A stretch of 64,000 nt of DNA from an uncultured archaeon (GCA_964539655.1 CAZIJH010000002.1:8741-72740), one strand, 5' to 3'; positions 6,864-64,000 are shown, numbered from the stretch's first letter. Notes: generated from the letters alone by a model not told the origin. Made by a program: numbers and translations.

Positions 6864-6909
6864 AAAAGTTTTATAAATACTTCTCTTCAACTATAGATGA
6901 GAGCTGGTT

Positions 6910-7083: not shown

Positions 7084-7108
7084 AATCGGAAATTGGAGAA
7101 AAAATAAA

Positions 7109-7552: not shown

Positions 7553-7593
7553 GATTTAAATTGTTGCAAACAATTAATTCGAGATGATTTTAG

Positions 7594-8091: not shown

Positions 8092-8137
8092 TTCTATGTT
8101 TCCCAATTTTTTAAAATATCAAATTTATAATTGTCTG

Positions 8138-8163
8138 CTAACTTTGGACGAACCAAAAGTTAG
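8138..8163. terminator. Perfect 8-bp inverted repeat CTAACTTT-N10-AAAGTTAG between convergent L11 and Cas2-like genes, preceded by T-rich run
   Basis: Seen directly. The T6 tract at 8107-8112 followed by the hairpin is plausibly a bidirectional terminator. Confidence 0.3.
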
Positions 8164-8366
8164 AATACAATGTTCTCTTCCAAAATATTAGCAATCCCTC
8201 CGCAATTCCTGATCCATATCGCGATTTTCATCAGCTCCTTGATGTTGTCGGACTTCCAGACGGAATTCTGCATCTTCTTCGCATCAATCGATTTCAAAAG
8301 ACGGTTGACCTTAATAGCCAGAATCGACTGGCCTTTCGGGATATCGAATAATAACAAATAGCTCAT
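8160..8366 (-). CDS. Small Cas2/VapD-like protein (68 aa), function unknown
   Basis: N-terminal YLLLFDIPKG (the Cas2 beta-1 VxVxYDI pattern), then KVNRLLKSIDAKKMQNSVWKS resembling the Cas2 KVxKLLxxYGxRVQNSVFEC helix-strand. No CRISPR array nearby. The call is by pattern only. Confidence 0.4.
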   Translation of the reverse strand: MSYLLLFDIPKGQSILAIKVNRLLKSIDAKKMQNSVWKSDNIKELMKIAIWIRNCGGIANILEENIVF

Positions 8367-8421
8367 AAAGTGTTAAAAGTATGACAAATACATATAAAGA
8401 TTTGTATTATTTACAGGTCAA

Positions 8422-9072
8422 TTATTTCTTATAAACTATTTCTCGAATCCTTCTATCATGTTCCAACCTTGAGACTCCCCAATACGTGAGCATCAATTCC
8501 CCGAGCAAATTTTGCCCCAAGAACATGTCTAAAATTTTCGAATCTTTATCGTCGTGGAAATAGCCAACCAGACACGTATACGGATCGTGATTTATTTTAT
8601 CGCCATCGGCGTGCGACGTAATCTTGATCGCTCTTACAGCCGGCATCCAGTTTCTTCTTCCAAATTTGTAAAACATTGCCTGGACATCGCTCGGATCAAA
8701 ACGCCTGCCATAACTCAACAAAATACTTGTTTCCGCGGTTTCCCTGTTAATGGATTGTATCGACGTATCCGAATCCTCGTATCCAAATCCATGAAGCCCG
8801 CTTGTCCAAAATTTTCTCAGATGATTCATGTTATGATGAGACAGACCAAAAGGAATTTTGACACAATACTGCTTGGTCAACTTTGACAAGTTGTTGTAGT
8901 TATTCGGACTGTGTGGAAAGGATTTCGGAAACTGAATGAAATGCGCCTTTATCCCGTGTTTTTCGACAACGTGCTCCTCTTTGCCTCCATCAATTTTCGG
9001 GACATTTATCCAAGCCTTCCGACCATTTTTTTCGTAGGCCCTTTTTTGGGATTCTGCGACCAGCAATGACAT
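8422..9072 (-). CDS. Thg1-like protein (tRNA-His guanylyltransferase / 3'-5' nucleotidyltransferase family), 216 aa
   Basis: Recalled Thg1 motifs were matched by eye. WINVPKIDGGKEEHVVEKHG resembles VVVRLDGRNFHRFAEKHNF. SYGRRFDPSD..AMFYKFGRRNWM resembles AYGQSDEYSFVFKRKTNWF. This is a tentative family assignment. Confidence 0.45.
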   Translation of the reverse strand: MSLLVAESQKRAYEKNGRKAWINVPKIDGGKEEHVVEKHGIKAHFIQFPKSFPHSPNNYNNLSKLTKQYCVKIPFGLSHHNMNHLRKFWTSGLHGFGYEDSDTSIQSINRETAETSILLSYGRRFDPSDVQAMFYKFGRRNWMPAVRAIKITSHADGDKINHDPYTCLVGYFHDDKDSKILDMFLGQNLLGELMLTYWGVSRLEHDRRIREIVYKK

Positions 9073-9159
9073 GATTATCGAATAACAGAGAAACTTTTTA
9101 AAGGTTGAGCTACAACTAGATTTACCCGCAAGTCACTGCTTCGGCAGGAGGGTCGTAAC

Positions 9160-9777
9160 ATGAATGAAAAAATATTGAAAGCCGTGAAGGAACTGAAAGA
9201 GAAATCCGAGAAAAGAAACTTTTCTCAAACTTTTGATTTGATCGTTTCCTTGAAAGATATCGACATGAAGAAGCCCGAGAGCAAGATCAACGAGGACTTC
9301 CCGCTTCCGCACAGCAGGGGAGACGACGCGAAGGTAATAATTTTTTCCGACACTCAAAAGTTTCCTGACGCGGAAGTGATGACCGGAGCCGACATAAATT
9401 CTCTTGCCGCGAACAAAAGGAACGCGAAAAAGATTGCGAGAGACACGGACTTCTTTTTGGCGGAAGCAAAGCTGATGCCTCTGGTCGGTAAGGTTCTCGG
9501 CCAGTCGCTCGGTCCAAGAGGAAAAGTCCCGAAGCTTCTTATCGGAAACATTCCGGACCTGGTGAAAAATTACAGACACGCCGTGAAGCTGAGGACAAAA
9601 GATTCTCCGGTGATACAATGCATGACCGGGAACGACAAGATGCCGGACGAGCAGATCGCGGAAAATATAGAAGCGGTTGTAAACTTTCTGGCGCACAAGC
9701 TTCCGCAAGGCAAGAACAACATCGGAAAGGTCCTGCTCAAAATGACAATGAGCAAGCCTATCAGGGTAGAGGTGTAA
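9160..9777 (+). CDS. rpl1: 50S ribosomal protein L1 (uL1)
   Basis: 205 aa with typical L1 N- and C-terminal regions. Confidence 0.9.
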   Translation: MNEKILKAVKELKEKSEKRNFSQTFDLIVSLKDIDMKKPESKINEDFPLPHSRGDDAKVIIFSDTQKFPDAEVMTGADINSLAANKRNAKKIARDTDFFLAEAKLMPLVGKVLGQSLGPRGKVPKLLIGNIPDLVKNYRHAVKLRTKDSPVIQCMTGNDKMPDEQIAENIEAVVNFLAHKLPQGKNNIGKVLLKMTMSKPIRVEV

Positions 9778-9781
9778 TGAG

Positions 9782-10558
9782 ATGGCGAAAGAACAAAAAA
9801 TAAAGGCGGTCGAGGAACTGAGAAAACTAATCGATTCTTATTCGACAGTCGGAATCATCGACATGAACAAGCTCGGAGCAAAGCAGCTGCAGGAAGTCAA
9901 GAAGGCCCTGCGCAGAAAGGCGAACATAATGATAACAAAGAAAACTATTTTGCTGCGCGCAATAAGATCATCGTCGAGAGAGAAAATCGGCGATCTCGAA
10001 AAACTTGCTCCACTCCAGCCAGCAATTGTGCTGACTAACGAGGATCCGTTCAAATTTTACGCCGTCGCGAGCAAACTGAAATCGCCGACATTCGCGAAGG
10101 AAGGCGACGTTGCGGAGGATGAAATTTTTGTTGCGGCAGGCCCGACAGGATTGATGCCGGGACCAGTCATCAGCGAATTCGCAAAAGTGAAGATACCAGC
10201 CGGTGTCGAGGAAGGAAAAATTTCAGTCAAGAAAGATACAGTAGTTGCAAAAAAAGGCGACAAGATTTCGAAGGATCTCGCGGTCATTTTGAGGAAGCTG
10301 AAGATACAGCCGATCAACGTCGGAATAATAATTTCAGCGGTTTACGAGAAGGGAATGATATACGTGAAGGACACGTTGGACCTTGTAGGGGAAAATTATC
10401 TGAACAAAATCAAGCAGGCTTTCAACGAAGCTTTAAATCTGTCTGTTGCCATAGGTTATCCAACAAAGGAGAACGTGGCTCAACTGTTGGCGAAAGCTTA
10501 CAGGCAGGCACAGGCTGTTGAAAAAATAATAAAACAACCAAGTGGAGGTTCGAATTAA
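9782..10558 (+). CDS. rplP0: 50S ribosomal protein L10 / acidic stalk protein P0 (uL10)
   Basis: 258 aa, MAKEQKIKAVEELRKLIDSY... in L1-P0-P1 order. Confidence 0.85.
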   Translation: MAKEQKIKAVEELRKLIDSYSTVGIIDMNKLGAKQLQEVKKALRRKANIMITKKTILLRAIRSSSREKIGDLEKLAPLQPAIVLTNEDPFKFYAVASKLKSPTFAKEGDVAEDEIFVAAGPTGLMPGPVISEFAKVKIPAGVEEGKISVKKDTVVAKKGDKISKDLAVILRKLKIQPINVGIIISAVYEKGMIYVKDTLDLVGENYLNKIKQAFNEALNLSVAIGYPTKENVAQLLAKAYRQAQAVEKIIKQPSGGSN

Positions 10559-10852
10559 ATGCAAGAAGTTTACGCCAGCTTAATACTGCACGATGCGAAG
10601 CAAGCTATCAGCGAGGACAACATCAAGAAAGTTTTGCAGAGCATAGGCAGCACAGTTGACGAAGCCAAAATCAAGGCCTTAGTTGCGTCGCTCGAAGGAC
10701 AGAACATCGACGAGCTCATCAAACAGGCTGCTGTTGCGGTGACCGCCGCGCCGGCTGCTGGAGCTAGCGAGAAGACGGAAGAGAAGAGCGAGGAAGAGGA
10801 GAAGAAGGCGTCTGAGGAAGCTTCGGCTGGATTGAGCGCACTATTCGGCTGA
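10559..10852 (+). CDS. rpl12: 50S ribosomal stalk protein P1 (aL12)
   Basis: 97 aa with an Ala-rich hinge and the acidic tail [18 protein letters not shown]. Confidence 0.85.
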
Positions 10853-10894
10853 AGTGATTTTTTACTTTCAGCTAGCCATGTAGGTGAAGAAATA

Positions 10895-11227
10895 GTGAAT
10901 AATTCAATCAGGGAAAAAATTGAAAGCGGATATTACTCCGATTCAAATCGTGCTCCGGATCTGAGAGTAATGTTAAGACTGCATGACGAGAACGCCCCGA
11001 TGTCCGTGGAGAATTTGTCAAGCGACACAAAAATTTCCATAGTCACGGTAAAAGATGCTATAATAAGATTACAGGGCCGTTTCTATCTTGATAGAGTTAA
11101 GACATCTTCGGGCCTGAAATATTTACTCACAAAATTAGGAAAGGATTACGCGCTAACCAAAGAAGAAGCGACAAATTCTCATTTGATGATCGGAAAGGTT
11201 CTTGAAATGGAGACTACTGAATGTTAG
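10895..11227 (+). CDS. Hypothetical protein (110 aa), possible winged-helix
   Basis: ORF with a 4-nt ATGA-type overlap to the HIT gene. No recognisable family. Confidence 0.4.
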   Translation: MNNSIREKIESGYYSDSNRAPDLRVMLRLHDENAPMSVENLSSDTKISIVTVKDAIIRLQGRFYLDRVKTSSGLKYLLTKLGKDYALTKEEATNSHLMIGKVLEMETTEC

Positions 11228-11631
11228 ACGACAACTGCATTTTCTGCAAAATAGTAGAAGGGAAACTCCCGGCGGTCAAAATTTGGGAGGACGATGAACA
11301 TGTTGCGATTTTGGACCTTTATCCGCGGGTCGAAGGTCAGACTCTCGTCATAACGAAGGAACATTTCGATTCGTACGCATTCGACCTACCGGACGATGTT
11401 TTTGAAAAACTTTTGATGGCGGCGAAAAAAATCGGGAAGACGCTTGACAAGGCGCTCGGTGCCGAAAAGACGGTAATGATAACAGAAGGTTACGGTGTCA
11501 ATCACGTTCACGTCAAACTTTATCCGAACCCTCCCGGAGGATACGAAGGATTCACCACAACTGCATTGGGCCAGAAGGCGACAGTCGAAAGCCTTGAGGA
11601 AGTTGCCAAAAAAATCCGCGAGGCGATCTAA
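11221..11631 (+). CDS. HIT-family (histidine triad) nucleotide hydrolase
   Basis: The histidine triad VNHVHVKL (HxHxHxx) is present, and the N-terminal CIFCKI is a zinc-binding motif. Confidence 0.8.
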   Translation: MLDDNCIFCKIVEGKLPAVKIWEDDEHVAILDLYPRVEGQTLVITKEHFDSYAFDLPDDVFEKLLMAAKKIGKTLDKALGAEKTVMITEGYGVNHVHVKLYPNPPGGYEGFTTTALGQKATVESLEEVAKKIREAI

Positions 11632-12002
11632 TGGTTGAGCTGAAAGATATTTTCAAATTCCAGAAAGAGTTCGACGAGAAGCACGGATGGATCTGGGACC
11701 ATGCCGACCCGGAAAAGAGAAGCAACATGCTGAAGCTGGGCGCGCTTGCGTTGGCGGGAGAGGCTGGGGAGTTTGCGAATCTTGTGAAAAAAGTCTGGAG
11801 GCAGCTGGACCACGACGGAACGGGCCCGAGCGCGGAGATGGTTAAAAAATTGCAAGAGGAAATCGTGGATGTTTTTATCTACGTTGTAACTTTGAGCGAA
11901 AATTTAAATCTGGACCTTGAGAAAGGTTATTTCGACAAGATGAAGTTTAACAACGAAAGGTTCCAAAAATTCGAGAAGGGAAAAGATGAAACAACTGCTT
12001 GA
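11631..12002 (+). CDS. MazG-like all-alpha NTP pyrophosphohydrolase
   Basis: LALAGEAGEFANLVKK (EExGE-type metal-binding helix). There is a 1-nt stop/start overlap with the HIT gene. Confidence 0.6.
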   Translation: MVELKDIFKFQKEFDEKHGWIWDHADPEKRSNMLKLGALALAGEAGEFANLVKKVWRQLDHDGTGPSAEMVKKLQEEIVDVFIYVVTLSENLNLDLEKGYFDKMKFNNERFQKFEKGKDETTA

Positions 12003-12600
12003 ACTCGCTGAAAAAATCCAGAACAAGGAACTGAGGAAAAAGGTAATCGATTTTATCAAGGATCCCACGCCGACACACAAGGATTTCAAGAAATATCCGA
12101 AAGGAAAATGGGATGAAATAAAAACTTGGTTTTCTGTCGGAGGAAGCCCTGTCGAGCGAGATGTTCTCAACCACACTTCCGCAGTCACAGAACTTTGCAT
12201 TTCTATCGCTGACATAGTCGAGAGAAATTACAAGACGACTGTCAACAAGGATTTCCTAATTGCCGGCGCGCTTCTGCACGACGTCATGAAACTTGTGGAA
12301 TGGAAAATGGGAGAGCTCGGTCCGGAGCACACAGGAATCATGCTCGACCACTCAATCATGGGATCCGCGGAACTTTACAGCAGGGAATTTCCGGAGGAAA
12401 TCATCCACATAGTCGCGTCGCATTTCGGCGAACACGGGCCAACCGCTCCAAGAACGATAGAGGCGTACATAGTCTACAATGTCGACAGCTTCCTAGCGAT
12501 GATAGAATACAACATCAACCTTCCGAAGCAGAAAGCGCAGCAGCTTCCAATGATTTTGTTCGACGACGAAACGATTAAGAAACTCGGCGAGAAATCTTAA
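11986..12600 (+). CDS. HD-domain phosphohydrolase
   Basis: The ALLHDVMK (HD) motif plus downstream His and Asp residues mark an HD domain. Confidence 0.75.
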   Translation: MKQLLELAEKIQNKELRKKVIDFIKDPTPTHKDFKKYPKGKWDEIKTWFSVGGSPVERDVLNHTSAVTELCISIADIVERNYKTTVNKDFLIAGALLHDVMKLVEWKMGELGPEHTGIMLDHSIMGSAELYSREFPEEIIHIVASHFGEHGPTAPRTIEAYIVYNVDSFLAMIEYNINLPKQKAQQLPMILFDDETIKKLGEKS

Positions 12601-12603
12601 TAG

Positions 12604-13710
12604 ATGTCAGAAGAACTTATTTCTAAAACGATAAAACCCGCGACTGATTTTATTGGAAAAATAAAGAAAGACAGCAGGGTCACGATAGTTTACGGGCATG
12701 ACAACGATACGATATGCTCAGCAGCAATAATTTACAAACTTATTGAAAAGAAATTCGGAATAAAATCAAAACTCGTCGTGTCCGAATTCAATTTCAAACT
12801 TGGCGAAAGTTCTTTTGATGAAATCAAAAAATCCAATCCAGAATTCGTGATTGTTCTCGACATCGCGGAAATCCCGAAAATCACCGAGGTGTTCTTAGAA
12901 AATTATGAAACCATTGTGATAGATCATCACGGACCGTCAATTTACAAAAAATTGGCATATTCCAATCCAATGCTGCACGACAAAAAATCCTACATACCAG
13001 TGACTTACATTTCTTACAGGATTTACAAAACGTTTTTCGACCCAAAAGAAATTTTGTGGATAGCTGGCATCGGGACGTTGGCAGATCATGGAGTGAGACA
13101 GACTACCGACCTTTTCAAGGAAATCAAGAAATACAATTATGAGTTGGTCGATGACATTGAATTCGTAGATGAAAAAATGTTTGACTCTACAACGTTAGGA
13201 CTTTTATCAAAAATGTTCGATTCTGCAGCAGTAGTGAAAAATATCGAAGGGGTCAGGCTTGCAGAAAAAATCCTTATCGAATCCGGTTCGTACAAAGACA
13301 TACTGCAATTGAAAAATGCAGACATCAAAAAACTTTCGTCATTGTATGAAACCAAAAGAAAAGAATTCGAAAGGCTGGTCGATGATTTTCACAAGAACAA
13401 AAAAGAAATCGGGATGTTTCTGATTTACGAGATAAAATCAAAATTGAAACTCAAATCAAATCTCGCTGGATACATACAGCAATTCTACAAAGACAAAATA
13501 ATCGTTGTCTACCAGCTACAAAAAGATTTTTACGAGATGAGCTTCAGGAGAGGACCGGATGTTAAAACAGATTTAAGAACTGTTGCAAAGTTTTCTGTAA
13601 GATCTATTGAAAATTCCAGCGCCGGGGGGCACGAGCCGGCATCCGCCGCAAGAATTCCAAAAAAAGATTTGGACAAATTCGTTGAGAATTTGAAATTATA
13701 TTCTGAATAA
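12604..13710 (+). CDS. DHH/DHHA1 phosphoesterase (RecJ-like/NrnA-like)
   Basis: DHH motifs GHDNDTICSA and VIDHHG, plus the DHHA1 GGH motif SAGGHEPASAA. Confidence 0.8.
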   Translation: MSEELISKTIKPATDFIGKIKKDSRVTIVYGHDNDTICSAAIIYKLIEKKFGIKSKLVVSEFNFKLGESSFDEIKKSNPEFVIVLDIAEIPKITEVFLENYETIVIDHHGPSIYKKLAYSNPMLHDKKSYIPVTYISYRIYKTFFDPKEILWIAGIGTLADHGVRQTTDLFKEIKKYNYELVDDIEFVDEKMFDSTTLGLLSKMFDSAAVVKNIEGVRLAEKILIESGSYKDILQLKNADIKKLSSLYETKRKEFERLVDDFHKNKKEIGMFLIYEIKSKLKLKSNLAGYIQQFYKDKIIVVYQLQKDFYEMSFRRGPDVKTDLRTVAKFSVRSIENSSAGGHEPASAARIPKKDLDKFVENLKLYSE

Positions 13711-13786
13711 TATGTTATGGACTATGGGAAATCTACTCCCCCGAAAAACGCCTAAGCCGACGCGACAAAATAATTTTTAGATTGAC

Positions 13787-13972
13787 ATGAAATGCAAAAA
13801 ATGCAGCTCGCCGAGACTCATGAGCTTCATAGACGGAGACGGACAGCACAGGCTGTTCTGCAGGATCTGCTCGATAAGCTTCCTGGATTCTTCTTTTAAG
13901 GTCCCGCGCCAGATCGAACTTCGTATGCCAAGAATATACAAGAACAATGCGGCCCTTGTGAGGAGAGGATGA
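13787..13972 (+). CDS. Small zinc-ribbon protein (61 aa)
   Basis: CKKC...CRIC forms one zinc ribbon. Its stop overlaps the next small ORF start (ATGA). Confidence 0.3.
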   Translation: MKCKKCSSPRLMSFIDGDGQHRLFCRICSISFLDSSFKVPRQIELRMPRIYKNNAALVRRG

Positions 13973-26484: not shown

Positions 26485-26532
26485 AATTTATATTTGCGCG
26501 CCGAGTAAAAGAATAAAGAGTTTGATTTGAAA

Positions 26533-27210
26533 ATGGAAATTCTCGTCATCAGCTGCATTCACAACGACGTTGAGAACATGATGGTTCTTGTCGACAGGCT
26601 CGAAGGCAGAAAATTTGACGTCGTCGTGTGCCCGGGAGATTTTACAGATTACAAGCTTCCTCCGGGTTTCACGCAGCGCGATCTCGCAAAAATAGTGATC
26701 GAAGAGCTGAGGACGATTTCCAAAAATGTCATTGCTGTTCCAGGAAGCTGGGACAAAGAGATAATAGACCTACTCGACAAGGAAAAGGTCAGCGTGCACG
26801 GAAAAGGCAGGATAATTGACGGAGTCGGATTCTACGGATACGGTGGGGGAAGGACTCCGTTCAACACTCCGTTCGAGCCCAGCGACGAGGAAATAGCAAA
26901 AGGCCTGAAGAATGCGTACAAGGATGTCGAAAAATCGCAGACGAAGATACAGATAACACACATGCCGCCCGCGGGGACGAGAACAGATGTGATCTTCAGC
27001 GGAGCGCACGTCGGATCGGAGGCCATAAGGAAATTTATCGAGGAAAACTCCCCGGCCGCAGCGATCTGCTCGCACATACACGAGGCGAGAGGGATTGACA
27101 CGCTCAACAAAACTAAAATTATCAACAGCGGAAGGTTCCCCGAGGGTTATGTTGGCATAATTTCACTGAAGGAAGGAAACGTTTCAGCCGAAGTTGTAAA
27201 TTTGATATAG
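26533..27210 (+). CDS. Calcineurin-like metallophosphoesterase
   Basis: Motifs CIHND, DVVVCPGDFTD, GSWD and a C-terminal CSHIHEARG. Confidence 0.75.
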   Translation: MEILVISCIHNDVENMMVLVDRLEGRKFDVVVCPGDFTDYKLPPGFTQRDLAKIVIEELRTISKNVIAVPGSWDKEIIDLLDKEKVSVHGKGRIIDGVGFYGYGGGRTPFNTPFEPSDEEIAKGLKNAYKDVEKSQTKIQITHMPPAGTRTDVIFSGAHVGSEAIRKFIEENSPAAAICSHIHEARGIDTLNKTKIINSGRFPEGYVGIISLKEGNVSAEVVNLI

Positions 27211-27351
27211 ATTATGCAGTATACAAAATCCTTTTTATATCTAGAATCCCAATTTCTTGTTTACCCACAGCGGATTAACAAAAACCTTTGGAAAAAATTC
27301 AGCAATTTCACACAATCACAACATCAGCAGTCACAAAGGAAAAGACCCATA

Positions 27352-27771
27352 ATGAGTTTAGAGGAATCGCTGGTTGTAAAGGAATCTGTCATTGATTTTT
27401 CTGTCGATTCTATAGTACAGGAAAGGACCGAAGAGAGGGTCGACAACATAATTATTCTTGCCGAAAGGTTGGATTTTTTTGACATCCAGCTGCTGAGAAA
27501 GTTTTACATTACCGGGAAGGACTTTCCATATGACACGCAGCCGTACTGCTTCCCGATACTATTCCTTGAAATGAAAGTGAACAACAAAATTTCAATCGGC
27601 CAGGAAGCCTTGAGAAAAAGATTGGACAACCTGACGAAACTCGGACTGATCGAGAAAATCGGAAGATCGAATCCGGCAAACTATTCTCCGGTCAAGGGAT
27701 CCGAGCAGGTAGTGCGCGCACTGATCACAAGGTTCTTCGTAATTAATGGCCTGAACAAGTTTCTTGCCTAA
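27352..27771 (+). CDS. Hypothetical protein, probable winged-helix DNA-binding
   Basis: C-terminal LRKRLDNLTKLGLIEKIGRSNPANYSPVKG resembles a wHTH. The ORF-track N-terminal extension was discounted. Confidence 0.4.
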   Translation: MSLEESLVVKESVIDFSVDSIVQERTEERVDNIIILAERLDFFDIQLLRKFYITGKDFPYDTQPYCFPILFLEMKVNNKISIGQEALRKRLDNLTKLGLIEKIGRSNPANYSPVKGSEQVVRALITRFFVINGLNKFLA

Positions 27772-27941
27772 GAAAAATATTTTCTGAAATGTTTCCTAAA
27801 ATAGTTATGATGTTTCCAATTGTATTTTGAAACGTTTACAACCAATATTTGTGAATATTCCAACCATATTGTCTGAGGATTCAAACTGATTGCTGCGGAG
27901 ATTCCAACAAAATTTTCTGACAAATCACAAAACTGTGCGAA

Positions 27942-28099
27942 TAGGCAGGTGGCGACGAAATTTTTCAAATCAAATCAAAAATCGATCAAAAATATTTATT
28001 ATTATATTATTATAAAATAACATAGTTATTATATTATTATATTATTTTTCTGAAAACAATATATTTTATTATAAGTCAGGCGGCGTCGCCGGCTGCCTA
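27942..28099. repeat. 158-bp element: 16-bp imperfect inverted repeats (TAGGCAGGTGGCGACG ... CGTCGCCGGCTGCCTA) around an AT-rich core, flanked by 5-bp direct repeat GCGAA
   Basis: Seen directly. Left arm is 27942-27957. The right arm reverse complement matches 14 of 16 positions. GCGAA lies at 27937-27941 and at 28101-28105. The core 27958-28083 is mostly TTATTATATTATTATA-type repeats. Confidence 0.5.
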
Positions 28100-28129
28100 A
28101 GCGAAAATTTTTTTGAAATCACATAATTA

Positions 28130-28444
28130 ATGACAGATTTGGAATCCGGTAAGTTATTTATATTATTGAAACTAATCATAGAAAATATGAAACGAGGCAG
28201 GCCGAACATAAGGCAGGTCATACAGTCGAGTTTGGTTGACATTCTGACGACATCACAGACGCCGCTCACAGTTTCGACGCTCACAAGGTTCGTTTCCCAG
28301 CAGTCGAACAGGACGATAAGCTGGAACACGGTGCAAAAATACCTGAACGAGCTCATCGTAGCAGACAGAATCCAGGTAATAACTTTGCCTCACTCAAAAT
28401 TCGAGAACAAAGACGGACTAACGGTTTATACTTTAAAGAAGTAA
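28130..28444 (+). CDS. Hypothetical small protein, possible wHTH regulator
   Basis: 104 aa immediately upstream of the DP1-like/PolB pair. Confidence 0.4.
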   Translation: MTDLESGKLFILLKLIIENMKRGRPNIRQVIQSSLVDILTTSQTPLTVSTLTRFVSQQSNRTISWNTVQKYLNELIVADRIQVITLPHSKFENKDGLTVYTLKK

Positions 28445-28460
28445 TTCTGAATGAAAATCC

Positions 28461-29612
28461 ATGGAAAAAGAAGAGATTGTCAGGAAGTTCCTCGAAGCCG
28501 GACTCCAGATAGACCTGAAGACATTGGAATATTTTCTTAATCATCAGAACAAGATAAGCTCATTTTTCTCCCTGATTGCAGAAAAAAGTCCAGGATCGCC
28601 GATAATAACTATCAATGTTGTCGAAAAGATGTTCTCGTCCAGCGACGAGCAGATCAGGGTCCTTAAGGAATTTTCTCCTTTCAAAAAAGAAATAACAATC
28701 GAGCAGCAGGTCGAGCTGCTAAACCAAAAATACAATGGCGTATCCGAAATTCTGCTGAAAAAAATTGATCTGATGGGCGTGATTTCCATAAACAAGATAG
28801 ACAAAAATCTCAGAAAATTCTCAATAATCGGAATGGTGAGGGAGAAGGATGACGAGGAAAAAACGGCTCTGGTCGAAGACAAGACTGGAAAATTGTCGGT
28901 CTCGTTCCAAAAGCAGGAAGAATTTGCGCTTTTGGAGGATGATGACGTAATCGGACTTGTTATAGACAATTTTAACGATAAGCTGTCGTGCACAAAAATA
29001 GTGTGGCCAGACATACCGCTCAGGAGAGAATCCACACGCACGTCTAAAAAATTAAACCTTTCGTTCGTAGCGACTGCAGACATCCTTGAAAAAATGGGCG
29101 GGTGGCTTAAGTCGAACAGCAAGGAAGAAAACATAATTTTTATCGCTTCAAAGACGGACGGAATCGAAAAATTCTCGGGTGAGAATCCGAACACCACAAT
29201 AATCACGTACAACGAAAACATTCCACTAACCCCGATGGGCAACAGTAGAATAATCGGAATAAATCACAATTCGGTAGTCGGAATCGGCCCGGTAAATGTC
29301 ATGGTCTTGGAAAGAAAACTTTTCGAGGAGTATCTTGCTCCAGGAAAAGATGTTGATGCCAAGGACGTGATAATAAAATTTTTGAAGAAAAGATTTCTTG
29401 CCGGAAAAATAAATTACATAGAAAGAAAATTCGTCTCGGATTTTTTCCTCAACCAAATACCGGACATGATTTTTGTAATGGGCTCTGAAAATTTTAGCGA
29501 GTCGAATTATAAAAACGCCACGATAGTCAGCATGCCAGACTCGAACAACAGCAAATTTTTCTATTTTGTAAAGCTTGACAGCCGGGAAAGTATTAAAGTT
29601 GATCTAACGTAG
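28461..29612 (+). CDS. DP1-like protein (PolD small subunit / eukaryotic B-subunit-like) with degenerate phosphoesterase motifs
   Basis: N-terminal helical region. An OB-fold-like segment FSIIGMVREKDDEEKTALVEDKTGKLSVSFQK...DDDVIGLVID. Then a calcineurin-like domain with degenerate motifs: SFVATADIL (DxH becomes DxL), IIFIASKTDG (GDxxDG-like), IIGINHNSVVG (GNHD becomes INHN) and FVMGSENF (GHxH becomes GSxN). Confidence 0.5.
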   Translation: MEKEEIVRKFLEAGLQIDLKTLEYFLNHQNKISSFFSLIAEKSPGSPIITINVVEKMFSSSDEQIRVLKEFSPFKKEITIEQQVELLNQKYNGVSEILLKKIDLMGVISINKIDKNLRKFSIIGMVREKDDEEKTALVEDKTGKLSVSFQKQEEFALLEDDDVIGLVIDNFNDKLSCTKIVWPDIPLRRESTRTSKKLNLSFVATADILEKMGGWLKSNSKEENIIFIASKTDGIEKFSGENPNTTIITYNENIPLTPMGNSRIIGINHNSVVGIGPVNVMVLERKLFEEYLAPGKDVDAKDVIIKFLKKRFLAGKINYIERKFVSDFFLNQIPDMIFVMGSENFSESNYKNATIVSMPDSNNSKFFYFVKLDSRESIKVDLT

Positions 29613-29621
29613 GGATTGAAT

Positions 29622-32366
29622 ATGGAGACAATTTTCCAACTGATTGACGTCGATTATGTTCAGGTTGACAGCAAAACAATCATAAGAATTTTCGGAAACA
29701 CACCCGACGGGAAGACAGTCTGCATCTTTGTCGACAATTTTAAGCCTTATTTTTACATATGTCCGAAAGAAAACATGCGCGACACTACTCTGGATTTCCT
29801 GCAGAATAAATTCGGCTCGAGCATAGTGAAAATTGAAACAGTTGAAAAATTCCTACCGTTCGGATACCACAAAGACAAAGCAAAAATTCTGAAGATCACT
29901 GCAAAGGACCCGTCTCAAGTTCCGATAATGAGAGACGAGTTGCTCAAGCAGAATTTCGTGAAAGGAATCTACGAGGCCGACATACTTTTCAAGTACAGGT
30001 TCATGGCGGACTACGGTCTTTCTGGAATGAAGTGGTATAAAGTTGAAGGAGTCCCTGCACCAACAAACACAGTCAAAGCGGACATCAGAATCAAGGCGGA
30101 GAAATTCGAGAATGTTGAAGAAAGGAAATTCGAACTGAGGCAGATGAGCTTCGACATTGAGATTGCCGGCAAGGGAGGCATGCCTAATCCCGAAGAGGAG
30201 CCCGTGATAATGATCAGCATCGCATTCCATCCAGGCTTTGGGGATTATAATACACTTGTCCTGGTTTCGAAACCGGTGAAGAACCATCCAAACGGAGACG
30301 TGCTCGCATTTCCGGACGAGAAGAGAATGCTTGAAAAATTCCTGTCAATTATAGACACGTACGATCCAGACGTCATTACCGGATACAACATAAACAATTT
30401 CGACATACCGTACATCTTCGAAAGGCTGAAGCAGAACAAGCTCGACAAGACTCTCGGAAGATGCAAGCAGAAGCAGATGATCTGCAAAAAACTTGGGACT
30501 GATTATAGAAATGTTGTCGTTGGAAGATTCATCGTGGACGTCTACAAGCTGATAAAAGAAATGCAGGTGAAGACGCAGCTTGCGGAGAAAGGATTCCCAA
30601 AATTAAAAAGATACGGACTCGACGACGTGGCGAAAGAAATTTTGAACGAACGAAAGCATGACGTCTCACACAGCGAAATTCCTAAAATGTGGAACGGGAC
30701 CGACGAAGAAATCAGGAAACTTATTGATTATGCGAGGCAGGACGCGGTGCTTGCGATGAAACTCCTTGTCATGAAGAACATGATAGAAAAATTCATAGAG
30801 CTAACAAAAGTTTCCGGGCTTCTCCTGCAAGACGTGCTGGACGGCGGGGAATCCAACAGGGTCGAGAACATGCTGCTGAGAGAATTCAACAAGGAAGATT
30901 TCGTCATGCCGCTGAAACCTTCTTCACAAGAAATTTTGAGGAGAATGGAGGAACGAGAATCGATGGGATTCAAAGGAGCGCTTGTCCTCGATCCGATTAC
31001 AGGACTCCATACGACACCAACTGTTTATCTTGATTTCAAATCGATGTACCCTTCGATATTCATAGGATACAACATCTGCCCGTCGACAATCGACATTGAA
31101 AAAAAAGAAACGGACGTAATCAAAGTTCCGACTGGTGTCCAATTCGTTTCGAAGAATGTTAAAGCCGGAATAATGCCGAGAGTGCTGCAATTTCTGATCA
31201 ACGAAAGAGACAGGATAAGAGCGCAGGCAAAGCAAACAACCGACGAGAATCTCAAGAAAATTCTTGAATCGAAACAGGTAGCAGTGAAGTACATGACGAA
31301 CGCGTTTTTCGGATACACCGGATACAACAGGGCGAGGTTATACATGCTCGACATCGCGAACGCGATAACCGGAACAGGAAGGCATCTCATCCAAGAAACA
31401 AGGGAAATAATTGAGTCGGACAAGAATCTCACGGTAGTTTACGGTGACACAGATTCGATAATGGTGAAGACGAATGAAAAGACCGTGGAGGATTCTTTCA
31501 AGGTCGGGGAAGTTTTGGAAAACAAAATTAACGAGCGGTTCAGAGGAATAATCCAAATGAAAATCGAAAGCGTTTTCACCTCCCTTCTGATACTCAGCAA
31601 GAAAAGATACGCCGGCATGAGCGTCGAAAAGGTCGCTGACGGGTTCAAGGAAAAAAACGTGATGAAGGGAATAGAAACGGTTAGAAGAGACTGGTGCGAT
31701 CTTACAGGAGAAACGTTGTCAAACGTGCTTGGAATAATTTTGAAAGACAAGGAACCTAAGAAAGCGCTAATATACATGAGGGAAATTATTGGAAAACTTG
31801 AGAAAAATGAAATTCCGGTCGAGAAACTCGTCGTCACGAAATCGGTTTCAAAATCACTGAAGGAGTACAAGGGATTGCAGCCGCACATAGAACTCGTAAA
31901 GAAAATGAGGAAGAGAGATATCTCGACGGCACCGGGAATAGGGGACAGAGTAGGATTCGTAATTGTGCAAGGCCTGCAGCTTATGTCGAACAGGGCCGAG
32001 GACCCGGACTACATCAAGAAAAATAATCTCAAGGTGGATTCGAAATATTATGTAGAGAGCCAGATACTTCCGCCACTGGAAAGAGTTTTCGAGTCCATTG
32101 GAATTTCGAAAAACGAGATCATGGGATTCGGAAAGCAGACGTCGCTCACCGACATGATGAAGAACAATTGGAACAACGGGGCAAAAAAAATTCAAGAGAA
32201 CGGTAACAATAACAGCATTACGATTCTGAATTCCGCAGAAGGTGTGATATGCAACAAGTGCAACCTTTCTTTCAGGAGGCCGCCATTGGTCGGCAAATGC
32301 GAAGCATGTAAGGGAGATTTATATTTCTATTCGGGAGAAATAAAATCTAAGAATATTGTGATTTAA
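29622..32366 (+). CDS. polB: Family B DNA polymerase (PolB) with C-terminal CxxC-x13-CxxC zinc ribbon
   Basis: Exonuclease motifs I FDIE, II YNINNFDIPY and III YARQD. Polymerase motif A DFKSMYPSI, motif B KYMTNAFFGYTGY and motif C YGDTDS. The C-terminus is ICNKCNLSFRRPPLVGKCEACKGDLYF. ATG is at 29622, 4 nt after the DP1-like stop. Confidence 0.9.
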   Translation: METIFQLIDVDYVQVDSKTIIRIFGNTPDGKTVCIFVDNFKPYFYICPKENMRDTTLDFLQNKFGSSIVKIETVEKFLPFGYHKDKAKILKITAKDPSQVPIMRDELLKQNFVKGIYEADILFKYRFMADYGLSGMKWYKVEGVPAPTNTVKADIRIKAEKFENVEERKFELRQMSFDIEIAGKGGMPNPEEEPVIMISIAFHPGFGDYNTLVLVSKPVKNHPNGDVLAFPDEKRMLEKFLSIIDTYDPDVITGYNINNFDIPYIFERLKQNKLDKTLGRCKQKQMICKKLGTDYRNVVVGRFIVDVYKLIKEMQVKTQLAEKGFPKLKRYGLDDVAKEILNERKHDVSHSEIPKMWNGTDEEIRKLIDYARQDAVLAMKLLVMKNMIEKFIELTKVSGLLLQDVLDGGESNRVENMLLREFNKEDFVMPLKPSSQEILRRMEERESMGFKGALVLDPITGLHTTPTVYLDFKSMYPSIFIGYNICPSTIDIEKKETDVIKVPTGVQFVSKNVKAGIMPRVLQFLINERDRIRAQAKQTTDENLKKILESKQVAVKYMTNAFFGYTGYNRARLYMLDIANAITGTGRHLIQETREIIESDKNLTVVYGDTDSIMVKTNEKTVEDSFKVGEVLENKINERFRGIIQMKIESVFTSLLILSKKRYAGMSVEKVADGFKEKNVMKGIETVRRDWCDLTGETLSNVLGIILKDKEPKKALIYMREIIGKLEKNEIPVEKLVVTKSVSKSLKEYKGLQPHIELVKKMRKRDISTAPGIGDRVGFVIVQGLQLMSNRAEDPDYIKKNNLKVDSKYYVESQILPPLERVFESIGISKNEIMGFGKQTSLTDMMKNNWNNGAKKIQENGNNNSITILNSAEGVICNKCNLSFRRPPLVGKCEACKGDLYFYSGEIKSKNIVI

Positions 32367-32917
32367 TGTTTGAAGAGTTGGACCTGCAGATTTTGAAGTT
32401 CATCAACCACCCAATCGATCCAATAGTAAATTATTTTTTCATATTTCTCGCTTATTCCATCTATCCGTTCCTTTTCTACCTCGCATACTATTTTTACAAG
32501 CACAAGCAGAGCGGAATACTTTCGCATCTGGTCGTCACCGCGATAATCGGATTCCTGATAGTTTCCGCGATAAAATACATTGTCGACCGCCCGAGGCCGT
32601 ATCTTGACAACTCGGAAATACAGAATATAATTTTCCTGTCAGACCCGTCTTTCCCATCGAGGCACACTTTCACAGCGCTGCTTCTCAGCATGTTTGTTCC
32701 AAGGGGATTATCAAGAAAATGGAAATCATCAATGTTCATTTATCTTGCGATGATTCCGATAACGATGATGTACATAGGCGTGCATTATCCGAGCGACATA
32801 CTAGGCGGCGTCATAATCGGACTGCTTGTCCCGAGAATAATCACTGAAAAACTTTCAACCAACCTATCAGAAAGAATTTTGTCGTTTGATATCAAGAAAC
32901 TTGTTCCAGCTTCCTAA
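32366..32917 (+). CDS. PAP2-family membrane phosphatase (possible polyprenyl-/dolichyl-diphosphate phosphatase)
   Basis: KYIVDRPRP, PSRHT and HYPSDI form the PAP2 catalytic triad of motifs. TAATG gives a stop/start overlap with polB. Confidence 0.8.
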   Translation: MFEELDLQILKFINHPIDPIVNYFFIFLAYSIYPFLFYLAYYFYKHKQSGILSHLVVTAIIGFLIVSAIKYIVDRPRPYLDNSEIQNIIFLSDPSFPSRHTFTALLLSMFVPRGLSRKWKSSMFIYLAMIPITMMYIGVHYPSDILGGVIIGLLVPRIITEKLSTNLSERILSFDIKKLVPAS

Positions 32918-37779: not shown

Positions 37780-38608
37780 GGCAATTATTCTAGCTGCTGG
37801 AAAAGGAACGAGACTGAGACCCCTCACTTACGGAATTCCAAAACCGCTTCTTCCAGTAAAAGGAAAGCCCATGGTTGACTGGGTAATCAGGAGCGTCATG
37901 GGAAAGAACGTAGACGGAATAATTCTCGCAGTATCGGGGACTGTCGGAGAGGATTCGCAGGAAAGAATGCTTTCGCATATTCACGGAATCTGCATAGACG
38001 CTTACATCAAGAATCTCAATTACAATTGCCCGATAAGAACAATACCTACTCCGCAGAGAGAGACGGCTGGTGATCTAAGATTCGTACTTGAGGAAGCCCA
38101 CATCAAAAAGGGAACAATTATTGTCGCATACGGTGACAACCTGACATCAGTCGACGTTGACAAGCTTCTTGATTATCATGAAAGATGCAAAAAGGAATTG
38201 GGGACAGTTGGAACAGTCGTTCTTTTCGAAGCTCCTGAAAACGAAGTGCACAGGTTCGGTATAGCAAAGCTGAAAAGCGTAAACGGATTTGATCTTATAG
38301 AAAATTTCATAGAGAAGCCGACCTTGCAGCAGGCTCCGTCCAGACTTGCAAACGCAGGATACTACATACTCGACGTGGAGGAAGTCTTCGACATGCTATC
38401 GAGAGAAAAAGTTAAAGTCGAGCATTCGCTGTTCCCTACGCTCGCGAGCCAAAACAAACTTGCCGCGTTCGTAACTAAGCTGCCATTCTGGATTGACATA
38501 AGTACGGTAGAAGCTTACGAATTGGCAAATAAGCTCGCTCACGATAATCTCATTTTGCCGCCGCCGGTGGCAGAGGTGAAAAACAATGGAAATGGATCAA
38601 ATAATTAA
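37748..38608 (+). CDS. Sugar-1-phosphate nucleotidyltransferase
   Basis: AIILAAGKGTRLRPLTYGIPKPLLPV is the G-x-G-T-R-L signature. GTG starts are at 37748 or 37763. Confidence 0.75.
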   Translation: MESDGVVILVKAIILAAGKGTRLRPLTYGIPKPLLPVKGKPMVDWVIRSVMGKNVDGIILAVSGTVGEDSQERMLSHIHGICIDAYIKNLNYNCPIRTIPTPQRETAGDLRFVLEEAHIKKGTIIVAYGDNLTSVDVDKLLDYHERCKKELGTVGTVVLFEAPENEVHRFGIAKLKSVNGFDLIENFIEKPTLQQAPSRLANAGYYILDVEEVFDMLSREKVKVEHSLFPTLASQNKLAAFVTKLPFWIDISTVEAYELANKLAHDNLILPPPVAEVKNNGNGSNN

Positions 38609-41018
38609 GCAAGACGTGGAAACAATCGCGAAGAACCTGGAAAGTTTCAGGGAAAAAATTAGTGGAAAGACTTTTCTTGTAACGGGCGGCGCCGGATTTC
38701 TCGGAAGCTGGGTGTGCGACACTGCGATAAGCCTCGGCGCAAAAGTTATCTGCGTTGACAATCTAGTTTCGGGAGTCGCAACCAATGTAGAACATTTAAT
38801 GAAAAATCCCAACTTCGAATTCATCAGTTCAGACATTCTGAACTTCGACACGGACAAAAAAATCGATTACATTTTTCACATGGCAAGCATAGCTTCGCCT
38901 CCATTGTATATGGAATATCCAATAGAGACTCTTGACTCGAACATATTCGGAACAAAAAGGATGCTCGAGCTCGCGAAAAAAAATAATTCTAGTGGATTCG
39001 TTTTCATGAGCACTTCAGAAGTTTACGGAAATCCTCCCGACGAGTTCGTTCCTACTCCAGAAACTTTCCATGGAGTCGTGAATTCATTTGGCCCGCGCAG
39101 CGTCTATGACGAAGGCAAGCGCGCCGCAGAGGCATACTGCTATTCTTTTTTCCAGAAATTCAAAATGCCAATCAGGATTTCAAGAACGTTCAACACCTAC
39201 GGCCCGAGGCTCGATGTGAAGTCTAGAACGAGTTACGGAAGGGCTCTCGTGAAATTCATTTCTCAAGCCATCGACGGCCAGCCGATTAGCATTTACAGCG
39301 ACGGGAAGCAGACCAGAAGTTTCTGTTACATCACAGACCAAATAGAAGGACTTTTCAGGCTCATACTTACTGAAGGTGTTGACGGGGAAGTTTTCAACAT
39401 CGGGCAGGAAGAAGAAATCACAATAGAAACGTTGGCCAGAATGATTGTCAATTTTACAGGATCAAGTTCTATCGTCGAGACAAACACGAAGCCGAACTAC
39501 GACTTGAAAGATGATCCGAGAAGGAGATGTCCGAATATTTCCAAGGCAAGATTGAAGCTTGCGTACAATCCAAAAGTAAAATTGGAAGTGGGTCTGAAAA
39601 GGACGATCGATTGGATAAAAATACACGCCGAAAAGGAAAAAGAAATTCTAAAAAAAAACTTTAGATCAGGCGACATAAGAGGAGTTTACGGCAAGGATCT
39701 TAATGAAGATACCGCGAAAAATATCGGCAAGGCGTATGGTACTTTCATCGGCGGCAGAGACGTTTTCGTCGGCAGGGATTTCAGAACAAGTAGCAAATCA
39801 TTATCAAAATCTTTGATTGACGGACTAATTTCTGTCGGATGCAATGTAATTGATTTGGGGGAGGTCACATCGCCTGTTCTTTATTTCGCCGTCGCCAAAA
39901 ACGGAAACAATGGCGGAATAATGGTCACCGCTAGCCACAACCCTCCAGAATGGAATGGCTTCAAACTGTGCAACCAAGACGGTTCTCTGATAGTCGAAGG
40001 GTTCGGAATGGAAAACGTGTTCGAAATTTTCGCGAGCGGAAAGTTTTTGAATAACGGAAAAATCGGGAATGTTTCCAGCAACGTCAAAATAATTGACGAA
40101 TACATTGATTTTGTCTCAGGAAAGATCAAAGCTAACAAAAAATTGAAAATTGTGATAGACACTGGTAACGGAACCGGAGTCCTTGTTGCCCCCAAAATTT
40201 TTACCAAGCTTGGGCATGAAATAATTTTGATAAACGAACAACCAGACGGTACATTTCCGTCTAGACCGTCCGATCCTAAGAATGGACATCTTACCAAATT
40301 GAAGGAAGAAGTTTTGAAAAACAACGCTGATTTTGGAGTGGCATATGACGGAGATGCTGACAGGATTGGGGTAATTGACGAGTCTGGAGATTTTATAGGC
40401 AATGGAAATGTAATGATAATGATTTTTTCGAAGATGTATCTCGAATCTAACCCCGGATCGAAAATAGTTTTTGACATCTGCTGCTCGTCCGCCGTTGAAG
40501 AATACATAAGAACAAACGGAGGAATACCGCTTGTTAACAGAGTCGGGCATGGCCACATAGTCAACAGGATGATAAAGGAGAATGCAATATTTGGCGGAGA
40601 ATTCAGTAACCATCTTTACTTTTCAGACATGTTCAATTTTGACGACGCGGTATATGCGAGCATGAAAATTTCAGAATTGCTTTCCGGAACTCAGATGAAA
40701 CTTTCTGACATAGTTTCGTTGTTACCGAAATATCCGAACACGGACATTTTTGAAATAAAATGTTCCGACCATTTGAAATTTAATGTCGTTGACGCAGTAA
40801 AAAACAAGATCAAAAAAAATGGAATGAAAACTTTGGACATAGATGGCGTGAAAGTTTTTTCAGACAACGGGTGGGCATTAATCAGAGCTTCAAACACACA
40901 ACCTGTAATAAAAATTAATGCCGAATCAAATACCTACGAGGATGCAAACAGGATTTTGGAAAACCATGCAAAGATTGTGCAGGAGGAGGTAATCAATCAT
41001 GAAAATTCTAATAACTGA
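38586..41018 (+). CDS. Bifunctional fusion: NAD-dependent epimerase/dehydratase (UDP-glucuronate decarboxylase-like, N-term ~340 aa) + phosphomannomutase/phosphoglucomutase (C-term ~460 aa)
   Basis: N-terminal VTGGAGFLGSWVCD plus the YxxxK region. From ~residue 350, FRSGDIRGVYG..., the TASHNPPEWNGFK active-site serine loop and GDADR Mg site mark the mutase. It is a single uninterrupted ORF. Confidence 0.75.
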   Translation: MEMDQIIKQDVETIAKNLESFREKISGKTFLVTGGAGFLGSWVCDTAISLGAKVICVDNLVSGVATNVEHLMKNPNFEFISSDILNFDTDKKIDYIFHMASIASPPLYMEYPIETLDSNIFGTKRMLELAKKNNSSGFVFMSTSEVYGNPPDEFVPTPETFHGVVNSFGPRSVYDEGKRAAEAYCYSFFQKFKMPIRISRTFNTYGPRLDVKSRTSYGRALVKFISQAIDGQPISIYSDGKQTRSFCYITDQIEGLFRLILTEGVDGEVFNIGQEEEITIETLARMIVNFTGSSSIVETNTKPNYDLKDDPRRRCPNISKARLKLAYNPKVKLEVGLKRTIDWIKIHAEKEKEILKKNFRSGDIRGVYGKDLNEDTAKNIGKAYGTFIGGRDVFVGRDFRTSSKSLSKSLIDGLISVGCNVIDLGEVTSPVLYFAVAKNGNNGGIMVTASHNPPEWNGFKLCNQDGSLIVEGFGMENVFEIFASGKFLNNGKIGNVSSNVKIIDEYIDFVSGKIKANKKLKIVIDTGNGTGVLVAPKIFTKLGHEIILINEQPDGTFPSRPSDPKNGHLTKLKEEVLKNNADFGVAYDGDADRIGVIDESGDFIGNGNVMIMIFSKMYLESNPGSKIVFDICCSSAVEEYIRTNGGIPLVNRVGHGHIVNRMIKENAIFGGEFSNHLYFSDMFNFDDAVYASMKISELLSGTQMKLSDIVSLLPKYPNTDIFEIKCSDHLKFNVVDAVKNKIKKNGMKTLDIDGVKVFSDNGWALIRASNTQPVIKINAESNTYEDANRILENHAKIVQEEVINHENSNN

Positions 41019-63952: not shown

Positions 63953-64000
63953 TTTGATTCACCAAAGAAATTACTAATGGTCTGAATTAAATAGTCAAAT

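Follow-up and report, generated by a model that had tools for sequence, protein, structure and literature searches.

Do archaea possess a replicative polymerase assembled in the eukaryotic manner, i.e., from a family-B catalytic subunit and an inactivated relative of DP1, the small subunit of the archaeal polymerase PolD? The question is raised by a 64,000-nucleotide stretch of DNA from an uncultured archaeon (GCA_964539655.1, CAZIJH010000002.1:8741-72740; hereafter the window), in which a DP1-like gene is followed directly by a gene for a family-B DNA polymerase (PolB). An initial examination of the sequence alone (the sequence-only reading) had likened this gene pair to the catalytic subunit and B-subunit of the eukaryotic polymerases (Pol) alpha, delta and epsilon, either as an analogue or possibly as a forerunner. 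We consider, with a probability of about 0.85, that the pair represents the aenigmatarchaeal form of a two-subunit, eukaryote-like replicative polymerase, which consists of PolB and a dead, DP1-derived B-subunit and replaces PolD. The case is carried by the homologies of both proteins, the loss of metal ligands, the recurrence of the two genes as a pair and their arrangement relative to neighbouring genes, all of which are directly observed. The system is already known, having been published in 2020; the reading is supported, but not new.

The DP1-like protein and its lost nuclease site

The 383-residue open reading frame (ORF) reported next to PolB is indeed present, at positions 28461..29612 of the + strand. 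The PolB ORF extends to position 32366 on the same strand, either from a TTG codon at 29616 (916 residues) or from an ATG at 29622 (914 residues). The 914-residue product has an exact match in a public protein collection, and the ATG is the more likely start. The spacer between the two genes, previously given as 4 nucleotides, is 3 nucleotides long to the TTG or 9 to the ATG, and reads TAG-GGATTGAAT-ATG. The features of the DP1-like gene are as follows, with the evidence in parentheses:

28461..29612, + strand: DP1-like (B-subunit-like) gene, 383 residues (ORF; NCBIfam model NF003118; AlphaFold2 model with Foldseek; 0/9 ligands)
28461..28640, + strand: N-terminal four-helix domain, similar to the N-terminal domain of DP1 (DP1N), residues 1-60 (alignment with the DP1 N-terminus; AlphaFold2)
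28812..29018, + strand: OB fold and WPDIP linker, residues ~118-186 (pLDDT 88-94)
28872..28892, + strand: VEDKTGK of the OB fold, invariant (alignment)
29001..29018, + strand: VWPDIP linker, invariant (alignment)
29046..29609, + strand: degenerate, shortened phosphodiesterase domain, residues ~196-383 (alignment to canonical DP1s)
29061..29087, + strand: motif I remnant SFVATADIL (alignment)
29139..29162, + strand: motif II remnant FIASKTDG (alignment)
29301..29318, + strand: motif IV remnant MVLERK, with His replaced by Glu (alignment)
29478..29492, + strand: motif V remnant MGSEN, with GHxH replaced by GSEN (alignment)

Judged by profile comparisons and by the predicted structure, the relationship of the protein to DP1 is statistically solid. 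The NCBIfam model of the PolD small subunit (NF003118) matches residues 1-203 with E=1.9e-19, and in an alignment with canonical DP1s the similarity spans the full length of the protein. The aligned blocks comprise the N-terminal helices, the VEDKTGK segment of the OB fold, the WPDIP linker and, in the C-terminal part, KKR(H/F)L, IPD, NYK and NLxTRE. A joint profile, built from the family of short DP1-like proteins described below together with canonical DP1s, matches DP1 chains of known structure (E~1e-97, owed mainly to its canonical DP1 rows) and reaches POLD2 weakly. When the AlphaFold2 model of the protein (pLDDT 79, pTM 0.70) was submitted to Foldseek, the top matches were to P. abyssi DP1 (E~1e-18, TM~0.6). 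Next came B-subunits of the eukaryotic enzymes Pol epsilon, delta, zeta and alpha, with POLE2, POLD2 and POLA2 among them. The domain order proposed earlier (helical N-terminus, OB fold, phosphoesterase) is thus borne out by NF003118, the alignment and Foldseek alike, and the fold is that of DP1 and the eukaryotic B-subunits, and not an unrelated one. Comparison with the corresponding Pfam families and with DP1 structures had been proposed as a check. The DP1 structures were matched, as just described, but no Pfam model, including DNA_pol_E_B (PF04042) and Metallophos, matched the 383-residue protein or the sequences P0002-P0004 at E<=1; for PF04042, this is because the phosphoesterase half is too degenerate and too short.

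In the AlphaFold2 model, the helices of the N-terminal domain occupy residues 3-12, 19-27, 30-41 and 51-59. Examination of the alignment of the short family with canonical DP1s shows that E139, D140, T142, D161, P183, D184 and P186 are invariant in both. The residues that remain constant from canonical DP1 to the short family are non-catalytic, and several of them are acidic (E139, D140, D161, D184 and D335). The conserved non-catalytic elements are EDxTG, D161, WPDIP, KKR (in the block KKRFLA), IPD, NYK and L-x2-RE.

To assess the state of the nuclease site, motifs I-V were compared with those of canonical DP1s at the nine positions that normally provide metal ligands. The 383-residue protein keeps none of these ligands (0/9). 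The claim that the phosphoesterase ligands are substituted therefore holds, as do the remnants quoted for motifs I, II and V, although the segment INHN (residues 267-270), which had been offered as the remnant of GNHD in motif III, aligns instead with a later NP strand of DP1; at most, YNENI (residues 250-254) stands in the place of GNHD. About 70 residues are deleted, spanning the motif III region and the C-terminal insertion of DP1. An active DP1 carries five phosphoesterase motifs with Asp, His and Asn ligands and has DP2, the catalytic subunit of PolD, as its partner gene; the window protein lacks the former, and the gene downstream of it is PolB. On the strength of its sequence, the protein is catalytically dead.

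The polymerase and its C-terminal tail

The features of the polymerase gene and of its 3' portion are the following:

29622..32366, + strand: family-B DNA polymerase, 914 residues (Pfam DNA_pol_B, E=8e-113; DNA_pol_B_exo1, E=6e-40)
32130..32216, + strand: low-complexity, flexible linker from thumb to tail, PolB residues 837-865 (pLDDT <50, AlphaFold2)
32247..32339, + strand: zinc ribbon similar to DP2 Zn-III, ICNKCNLSFRRPPLVGKCEACKGDLYFYSGE (phmmer against the PDB; NCBIfam)
32250..32261, + strand: CNKC
32271..32285, + strand: FRRPP loop
32298..32309, + strand: CEAC

As the sequence-only reading had stated, the exonuclease and polymerase motifs of PolB are complete (FDIE, YNINNFD, YARQD, DFKSMYPS, KYMTNAFFG, YGDTDS and KKRYA), and an alignment of 66 sequences shows no variation at the key catalytic positions. 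By sequence, the best matches in the PDB are the catalytic subunits of Pol delta (409 bits for human POLD1 versus ~325 bits for Thermococcales PolB). Comparison by fold agrees: each of the five best matches to the AlphaFold2 model of the full-length protein (pLDDT 84) is a Pol delta. A search for relatives yielded 1541 matches at E<=1e-50, the best 120 of which are 876-1332 residues long (mostly ~890-912) and show 52-77% identity; the named sequences among these 120 are mostly from Candidatus Aenigmatarchaeota. By its closest relatives and best PDB matches, the polymerase appears to group with the Aenigmatarchaeota PolBs in the Delta-like clade. The assignment of the window itself to the Aenigmatarchaeota likewise rests on the nearest named PolB relatives, together with block synteny with GCA_038998945.1. 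Three aenigmatarchaeal homologs of 1251-1332 residues (P0055, P0073 and P0102) bear intein and LAGLIDADG domains (PF14890, PF14528) and are intein-containing forms of the same polymerase.

The C-terminal zinc ribbon is, as claimed, a single Cys4 motif, but its spacing is CNKC-x12-CEAC and not x13. The four Cys residues are invariant in the 66-sequence alignment, and the ribbon occurs in all of the best 120 PolB relatives (120/120). Had it been common among polymerases without a DP1-like partner, the proposed association would have lost its basis; however, the partner was present in every locus examined.

The last 91 residues of PolB, when searched with phmmer against the PDB, produced significant matches solely to the Zn-III module of DP2. 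These were residues 1130-1155 of the T. kodakarensis protein (6knb_B, E=8e-4) and 1122-1147 of the P. abyssi protein (6hms_B, E=1.3e-3), the latter with 15 identities in 26 positions (ICNKCNLSFRRPPLVGKCEACKGDLY). Positions 1266-1292 of the NCBIfam DP2 model match the same tail residues (E=8.5e-4). When the tail was aligned with the DP2 tails of three canonical loci, the similarity was found to consist of Zn-III and the next strand (15-18 of 31 residues identical), with no counterparts of the DP2 helices that flank Zn-III on either side. The linker, which varies among orthologs in both length and sequence, is predicted to be disordered. It is followed by a confidently modeled, beta-rich module at residues 870-914 (pLDDT 83-88 over the ribbon), and the ~14 residues beyond the ribbon contain no helices. 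By sequence homology, then, the tail is a form of DP2 Zn-III, the DP1-docking element, rather than a generic zinc ribbon, and it can be defined minimally as Zn-III with one further strand, borne by a flexible linker.

The role of this element is known from PolD. In its cryo-EM structure (Raia 2019, PMC6355029), the Zn-III loop KxRRxP (R1131 and R1132) enters an electronegative groove between the OB and phosphodiesterase domains of DP1. The same article cites earlier work in which an isolated Zn-III peptide of 20 residues sufficed for nanomolar binding to DP1, and notes that the C-terminal domains (CTDs) of the eukaryotic catalytic subunits use the equivalent Zn-2/CysB module likewise.

Family distribution, gene order and interpretation

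A word-indexed search had returned merely three close relatives of the DP1-like protein. The apparently tiny family proved to be a sensitivity artefact when an exhaustive profile search was performed, which recovered 966 cluster representatives at E<=1e-3, 175 of them at E<=1e-30. The best 150 of the 966 are all short (240-412 residues). Among 152 short-family sequences, 73 keep none of the nine ligands, 41 keep one and 18 keep two. At the other end of the scale, 11 of the 152 representatives (~7%; P0134, P0138, P0141, P0148, P0151, P0153, P0159, P0170, P0191, P0224 and P0276) keep 6-7 of the nine, as does the copy at locus L007 (10001..11110 of Ca. Aenigmatarchaeota JAWCLW010000002). In this minority, motifs I, II, IV and V (DxH, GD, H and GHxH) are preserved and the changes are confined to motif III. 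Such ligand-keeping genes are still paired with a ribbon-tailed PolB. The decay of the nuclease site is therefore widespread but graded over the family, and its loss looks gradual and possibly repeated, rather than a single ancestral event. The window forms a divergent trio with loci L001 and L002, whose PolBs are at most 60% identical to those of the other members and whose DP1-like proteins are ~30% identical.

Gene order was compared among ten loci, namely the window, L001, L002, L003, L005, L006, L007, L011 (GCA_038998945.1), L012 and L013. The same gene pair recurs among relatives: in eight of the ten loci, i.e., in all except L003 and L006, PolB is immediately preceded by the DP1-like gene. 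Two configurations can be distinguished. The first reads CBS, Hjc, metallophosphoesterase, ORF-A, ORF-B, DP1-like, PolB, PAP2, SecDF and is complete in the window, L002, L011 and L013; L001, L005 and L012 conform to it within the limits set by their contigs or downstream genes, L012 being without PAP2 and SecDF downstream. In the second, the DP1-like gene follows Orc1/Cdc6, with PolB adjoining in L007 (Orc1/Cdc6, DP1, PolB; 8716..13902); in L006 the stretch of Orc1/Cdc6 and the DP1-like gene covers 8773..10972. In the three closest canonical DP1 loci (L008, L009 and L010, ~5770..12500), the order is Orc1/Cdc6, DP1, DP2, and PolB therefore occupies the slot of DP2. This would fit a recombination by which PolB replaced the body of DP2 in place while the 3' end of DP2 was kept. 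Two reports deal with this system (PMC7544198 and PMC12680538), and their main texts mention neither the Orc1-DP1-PolB order nor the gene adjacency nor the graded loss of ligands. The gene downstream of the DP1-like gene in L003 (the locus of P0004) was considered as a possible DP2 or PolB; this was ruled out, as it codes for a helix-turn-helix (HTH)-domain protein.

On this basis, we envisage the following mode of action. The Pol-delta-like catalytic subunit would polymerise DNA and proofread with its own exonuclease domain. Its flexible C-terminal linker of ~30 residues would bear the small ribbon derived from DP2 Zn-III, and the basic FRRPP loop of the ribbon may dock onto the DP1-like protein, in the conserved, acidic groove that separates its OB and phosphodiesterase-like domains, in a geometry inferred from PolD. 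Such binding is predicted for this pair by analogy with aenigmatarchaeal homologs, for which it has been shown by yeast two-hybrid analysis. The DP1-like protein would descend from the proofreading subunit of PolD and serve now as a structural B-subunit only. Most likely, its four-helix N-terminal domain would tie the polymerase to the GINS/CMG helicase, as do DP1N in PolD and Dpb2N in Pol epsilon. In Thermococcus, the four helices of DP1N bind Gins51 (Gins51C) and couple PolD to CMG, in parallel to Dpb2N-Psf1 (PMC9023282). The pair would replace PolD in the lineage, and would presumably act as the main replicase of this organism.

Several observations weigh against such an interpretation. At L006, PolB lies 1.9 kb from the DP1-like gene and on the opposite strand, and in the L003/L006 subgroup as a whole the DP1-like gene follows Orc1/Cdc6 with PolB non-adjacent. 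Some tails of the family lack the RR pair (e.g., YVNAPM and YTLMPM). In PolD, DP1 is also contacted by the DP2 helices alpha1' and alpha3', which the tail does not have; since only Zn-III and one strand are kept, the interface would be reduced relative to those of PolD and the eukaryotic enzymes. Finally, the check for DP2, which revealed no DP2-like or DP2-sized ORF, is limited to the 64 kb of the window. The separated genes of L003 and L006, the missing RR pairs and the absent helical part of the DP2 CTD would also speak for a conserved relic that acts alone, as a scaffold linked to GINS/CMG, primase or Orc1, while the ribbon serves for contact with the DNA minor groove or with PCNA; indeed, Zn-III of PolD also touches the nascent duplex (PMC6355029). 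We nevertheless regard a solitary relic as improbable, in view of the tight adjacency in eight of ten loci, the conservation of both the docking-loop motif and the non-catalytic surface residues of DP1, and the two-hybrid binding published for the aenigmatarchaeal homologs (PMC12680538).

It is conceivable, too, that the 383-residue protein is still a DP1-type nuclease that operates through non-canonical residues, in which case the complex would have two proofreading sites. The 11 representatives and the L007 copy that keep most ligands do indicate that inactivation is not family-wide, but the complete loss of ligands in the window protein, the deletion of ~70 residues (motif III and the C-terminal DP1 insertion) and the failure of Metallophos and PF04042 to match make this proposal hardly credible. 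Only a little less remote is the possibility that the pair belongs to an integrated virus or mobile element and not to the chromosomal replication machinery. Kazlauskas et al. suggested a mobile origin of the B6 group of PolBs on account of its narrow distribution (PMC7544198). However, the block of CBS, Hjc, metallophosphoesterase, the pair, PAP2 and SecDF is kept across long aenigmatarchaeal contigs, and the ORFs examined included none for an integrase or a capsid protein. The window has the character of a normal archaeal chromosome: its contents include two tRNAs, FtsZ, a Hel308-type helicase, Nop5/56, Hjc, SecD/SecF and a large set of glycosylation genes, several of them housekeeping genes, and its base composition is unremarkable around the pair and even throughout, with the exception of the last 2 kb. 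A two-subunit polymerase in place of PolD accordingly remains our preferred reading.

Neighbouring genes and known counterparts

The pair is part of a tight, co-directional cluster of four genes (28130..32917), consisting of ORF-B, the DP1-like gene, PolB and PAP2. The genes on either side of the pair are:

26527..27210, + strand: 227-residue metallophosphoesterase (Pfam Metallophos/Metallophos_3)
27214..27771, + strand: ORF-A, between the metallophosphoesterase and ORF-B
28130..28444, + strand: winged-helix ORF-B, ending 16 nucleotides upstream of the DP1-like gene (association by position only)
32366..32917, + strand: PAP2 phosphatase gene (Pfam PAP2, E=2e-20), whose start overlaps the PolB stop (TAATG)

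The PAP2 gene occupies the same position in L001, L002, L011 and L013; it is probably co-transcribed with PolB and functionally unrelated to it. In each of the seven loci with the first configuration, ORF-B immediately precedes the DP1-like gene; the other configuration lacks it and has Orc1/Cdc6 in that position. Its orthologs (L001 1..219, L002 5209..5523, L005 6364..6642, L011 3537..3785, L012 3475..3822 and L013 3589..3855) share a conserved core of ~75 residues, MKRGRPNIR...ISWNTVQKYL...LTVYT, and match the Pfam winged-helix families TBPIP/Hop2 and Penicillinase_R; a search of the PDB by sequence gave no match. ORF-B could be a regulator or an unrecognised accessory subunit of the polymerase. 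Eukaryotic Pol delta offers a parallel, as its B-subunit is bound by the winged-helix N-terminal domain of Pol32/p66. A more elaborate scheme, in which ORF-B is a third holoenzyme subunit that binds the dead DP1 and the DP2 body was swapped in place, leaving Zn-III behind, is in our opinion unlikely. The small upstream winged-helix ORFs were also considered as remnants of the winged-helix domain of Orc1/Cdc6, an idea rejected for lack of similarity.

ORF-A has a core of ~130 residues that begins at about residue 47, and orthologs in L002, L005, L011, L012 and L013. It shows only a weak match to HTH_12 (E~0.09) and none in the PDB. The metallophosphoesterase neighbours the DP1-like gene in eight of the ten loci (the window, L002, L003, L005, L006, L011, L012 and L013). 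No copy was found in L007, where the DP1 still has most of its ligands, and the upstream sequence of L001 is too short to judge. In the window and L002, motif I of this enzyme reads C-I-H for D-x-H and motif III GSWD for GNHD; the L006 copy is canonical. The notion that it represents the split-off nuclease domain of DP1 was rejected, as the similarity is that of the generic superfamily (hhalign probability 43%, best PDB match aq_1956).

The 360-bp intergenic region 27771..28130 contains ~100 bp of almost pure A+T, especially at 27975..28075, and is probably a promoter region. Short repeats occur near the cluster (TTTTCTGAAA at 27780 and 28046; TGCCTAAG..TTTTCTGAAAT at 27765 and 28094). As candidates for origin-like repeats these are unconvincing, being short and weak and forming no clear repeat families. 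Farther away, an 810-residue ORF (38586..41018, + strand) encodes an NAD-dependent sugar epimerase/dehydratase fused to a complete phosphoglucomutase/phosphomannomutase (four PGM_PMM domains), and heads a long glycosylation gene cluster (~36.4-60.9 kb). A 729-residue ORF (61012..63201, - strand) has similarity to RHS repeats, and the last 2 kb (62001..64000) have a G+C content of 35.6%, compared to 40-48% elsewhere; the end of the window (61012..64000) may be a foreign or variable surface-protein region. A 368-residue DHH-family protein (12604..13710, + strand; PF01368, E=5e-7) could be a replisome nuclease of the GAN/RecJ/Cdc45 type.

The polymerase pair exemplifies, in a present-day lineage, the step from which all replicative polymerases of eukaryotes are believed to derive, whereby a family-B polymerase gains the DP1-docking module of PolD and DP1 becomes a non-catalytic B-subunit. 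This significance was already drawn in print in 2020 and partly tested in 2025. The window provides a further, rather divergent example, and the present analysis adds the gene-order evidence, a count of the graded ligand loss, the minimal definition of the tail and the conserved neighbour genes.

Like the small subunit of archaeal PolD (P. abyssi 6HMS/6T8H), the DP1-like protein is homologous over its full length, with DP1N, OB and phosphodiesterase domains. The Zn-III module with its RRxP loop is homologous as well, and the Orc1/Cdc6-adjacent operon position is common to PolD and some family members. The catalytic body, on the other hand, is a double-psi beta-barrel DP2 in PolD and a family-B polymerase in the window, where the DP1 nuclease is dead and the helices of the DP2 CTD are absent.

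As in eukaryotic Pol delta (POLD1-POLD2), alpha and epsilon, the family-B subunit, which is closest to Pol delta in both sequence and fold, has a partner of inactivated DP1-type fold and is predicted to be attached to it by a C-terminal metal-binding module. In contrast to the eukaryotic CTDs, which combine a helical bundle with two Cys4 modules, CysA and CysB (PMC7544198), the window tail has a single ribbon and no helices, and the recognised subunits of the window polymerase are two. The suggestion of a eukaryote-like pairing thus stands as far as an analogue is concerned, given the fold, the ligand loss, the Zn-III tail and the recurrent pair. The forerunner interpretation is weakened by the 2025 report discussed below (PMC12680538), and further by the missing helical bundle and second Cys motif.

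According to that report, published in Nat Ecol Evol, the Aenigmatarchaeota and Baldrarchaeia are the sole archaeal lineages without DP2 that retain DP1, and DP1 binds PolB-DP2CTD in both, as determined by AlphaFold3 and yeast two-hybrid analysis (PMC12680538). The Baldrarchaeia PolB3-DP2CTD and DP1 resemble the window system in that PolB is fused to a DP2-derived CTD, DP2 is lost and DP1 is retained. The Baldrarchaeia CTD is of full length, like those of DP2 and the eukaryotic enzymes, whereas the aenigmatarchaeal CTD is degenerate and shorter (PMC12680538), in agreement with our tail alignment. The authors favoured the Baldrarchaeia form as closer to the eukaryotic enzymes, and attributed the "B6-aenigma2" sequences, which have two motifs, to contamination from Baldrarchaeia.

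The closest counterpart is the PolB group B6, of the Delta-like clade, described by Kazlauskas, Krupovic, Guglielmini, Forterre and Venclovas (2020, NAR; PMC7544198). Its B6-aenigma1 members occur together with an inactive Aenigma-type DP1 ("Aenigma_GB_GCA_002789635-like") and without DP2, and the authors explicitly proposed that these changes anticipate the eukaryotic architecture of PolB and B-subunit. The absence of DP2 is reported at the level of the phylum (PMC7544198, PMC12680538). The window shares with B6-aenigma1 an intact, Pol-delta-like PolB, one C-terminal Cys4 motif (CxxC-x12-CxxC) nearest to DP2 Zn-III, an inactivated DP1 homolog and aenigmatarchaeal relatives. There is no difference in kind between the two; the window, L001 and L002 represent a divergent twig of the same system.

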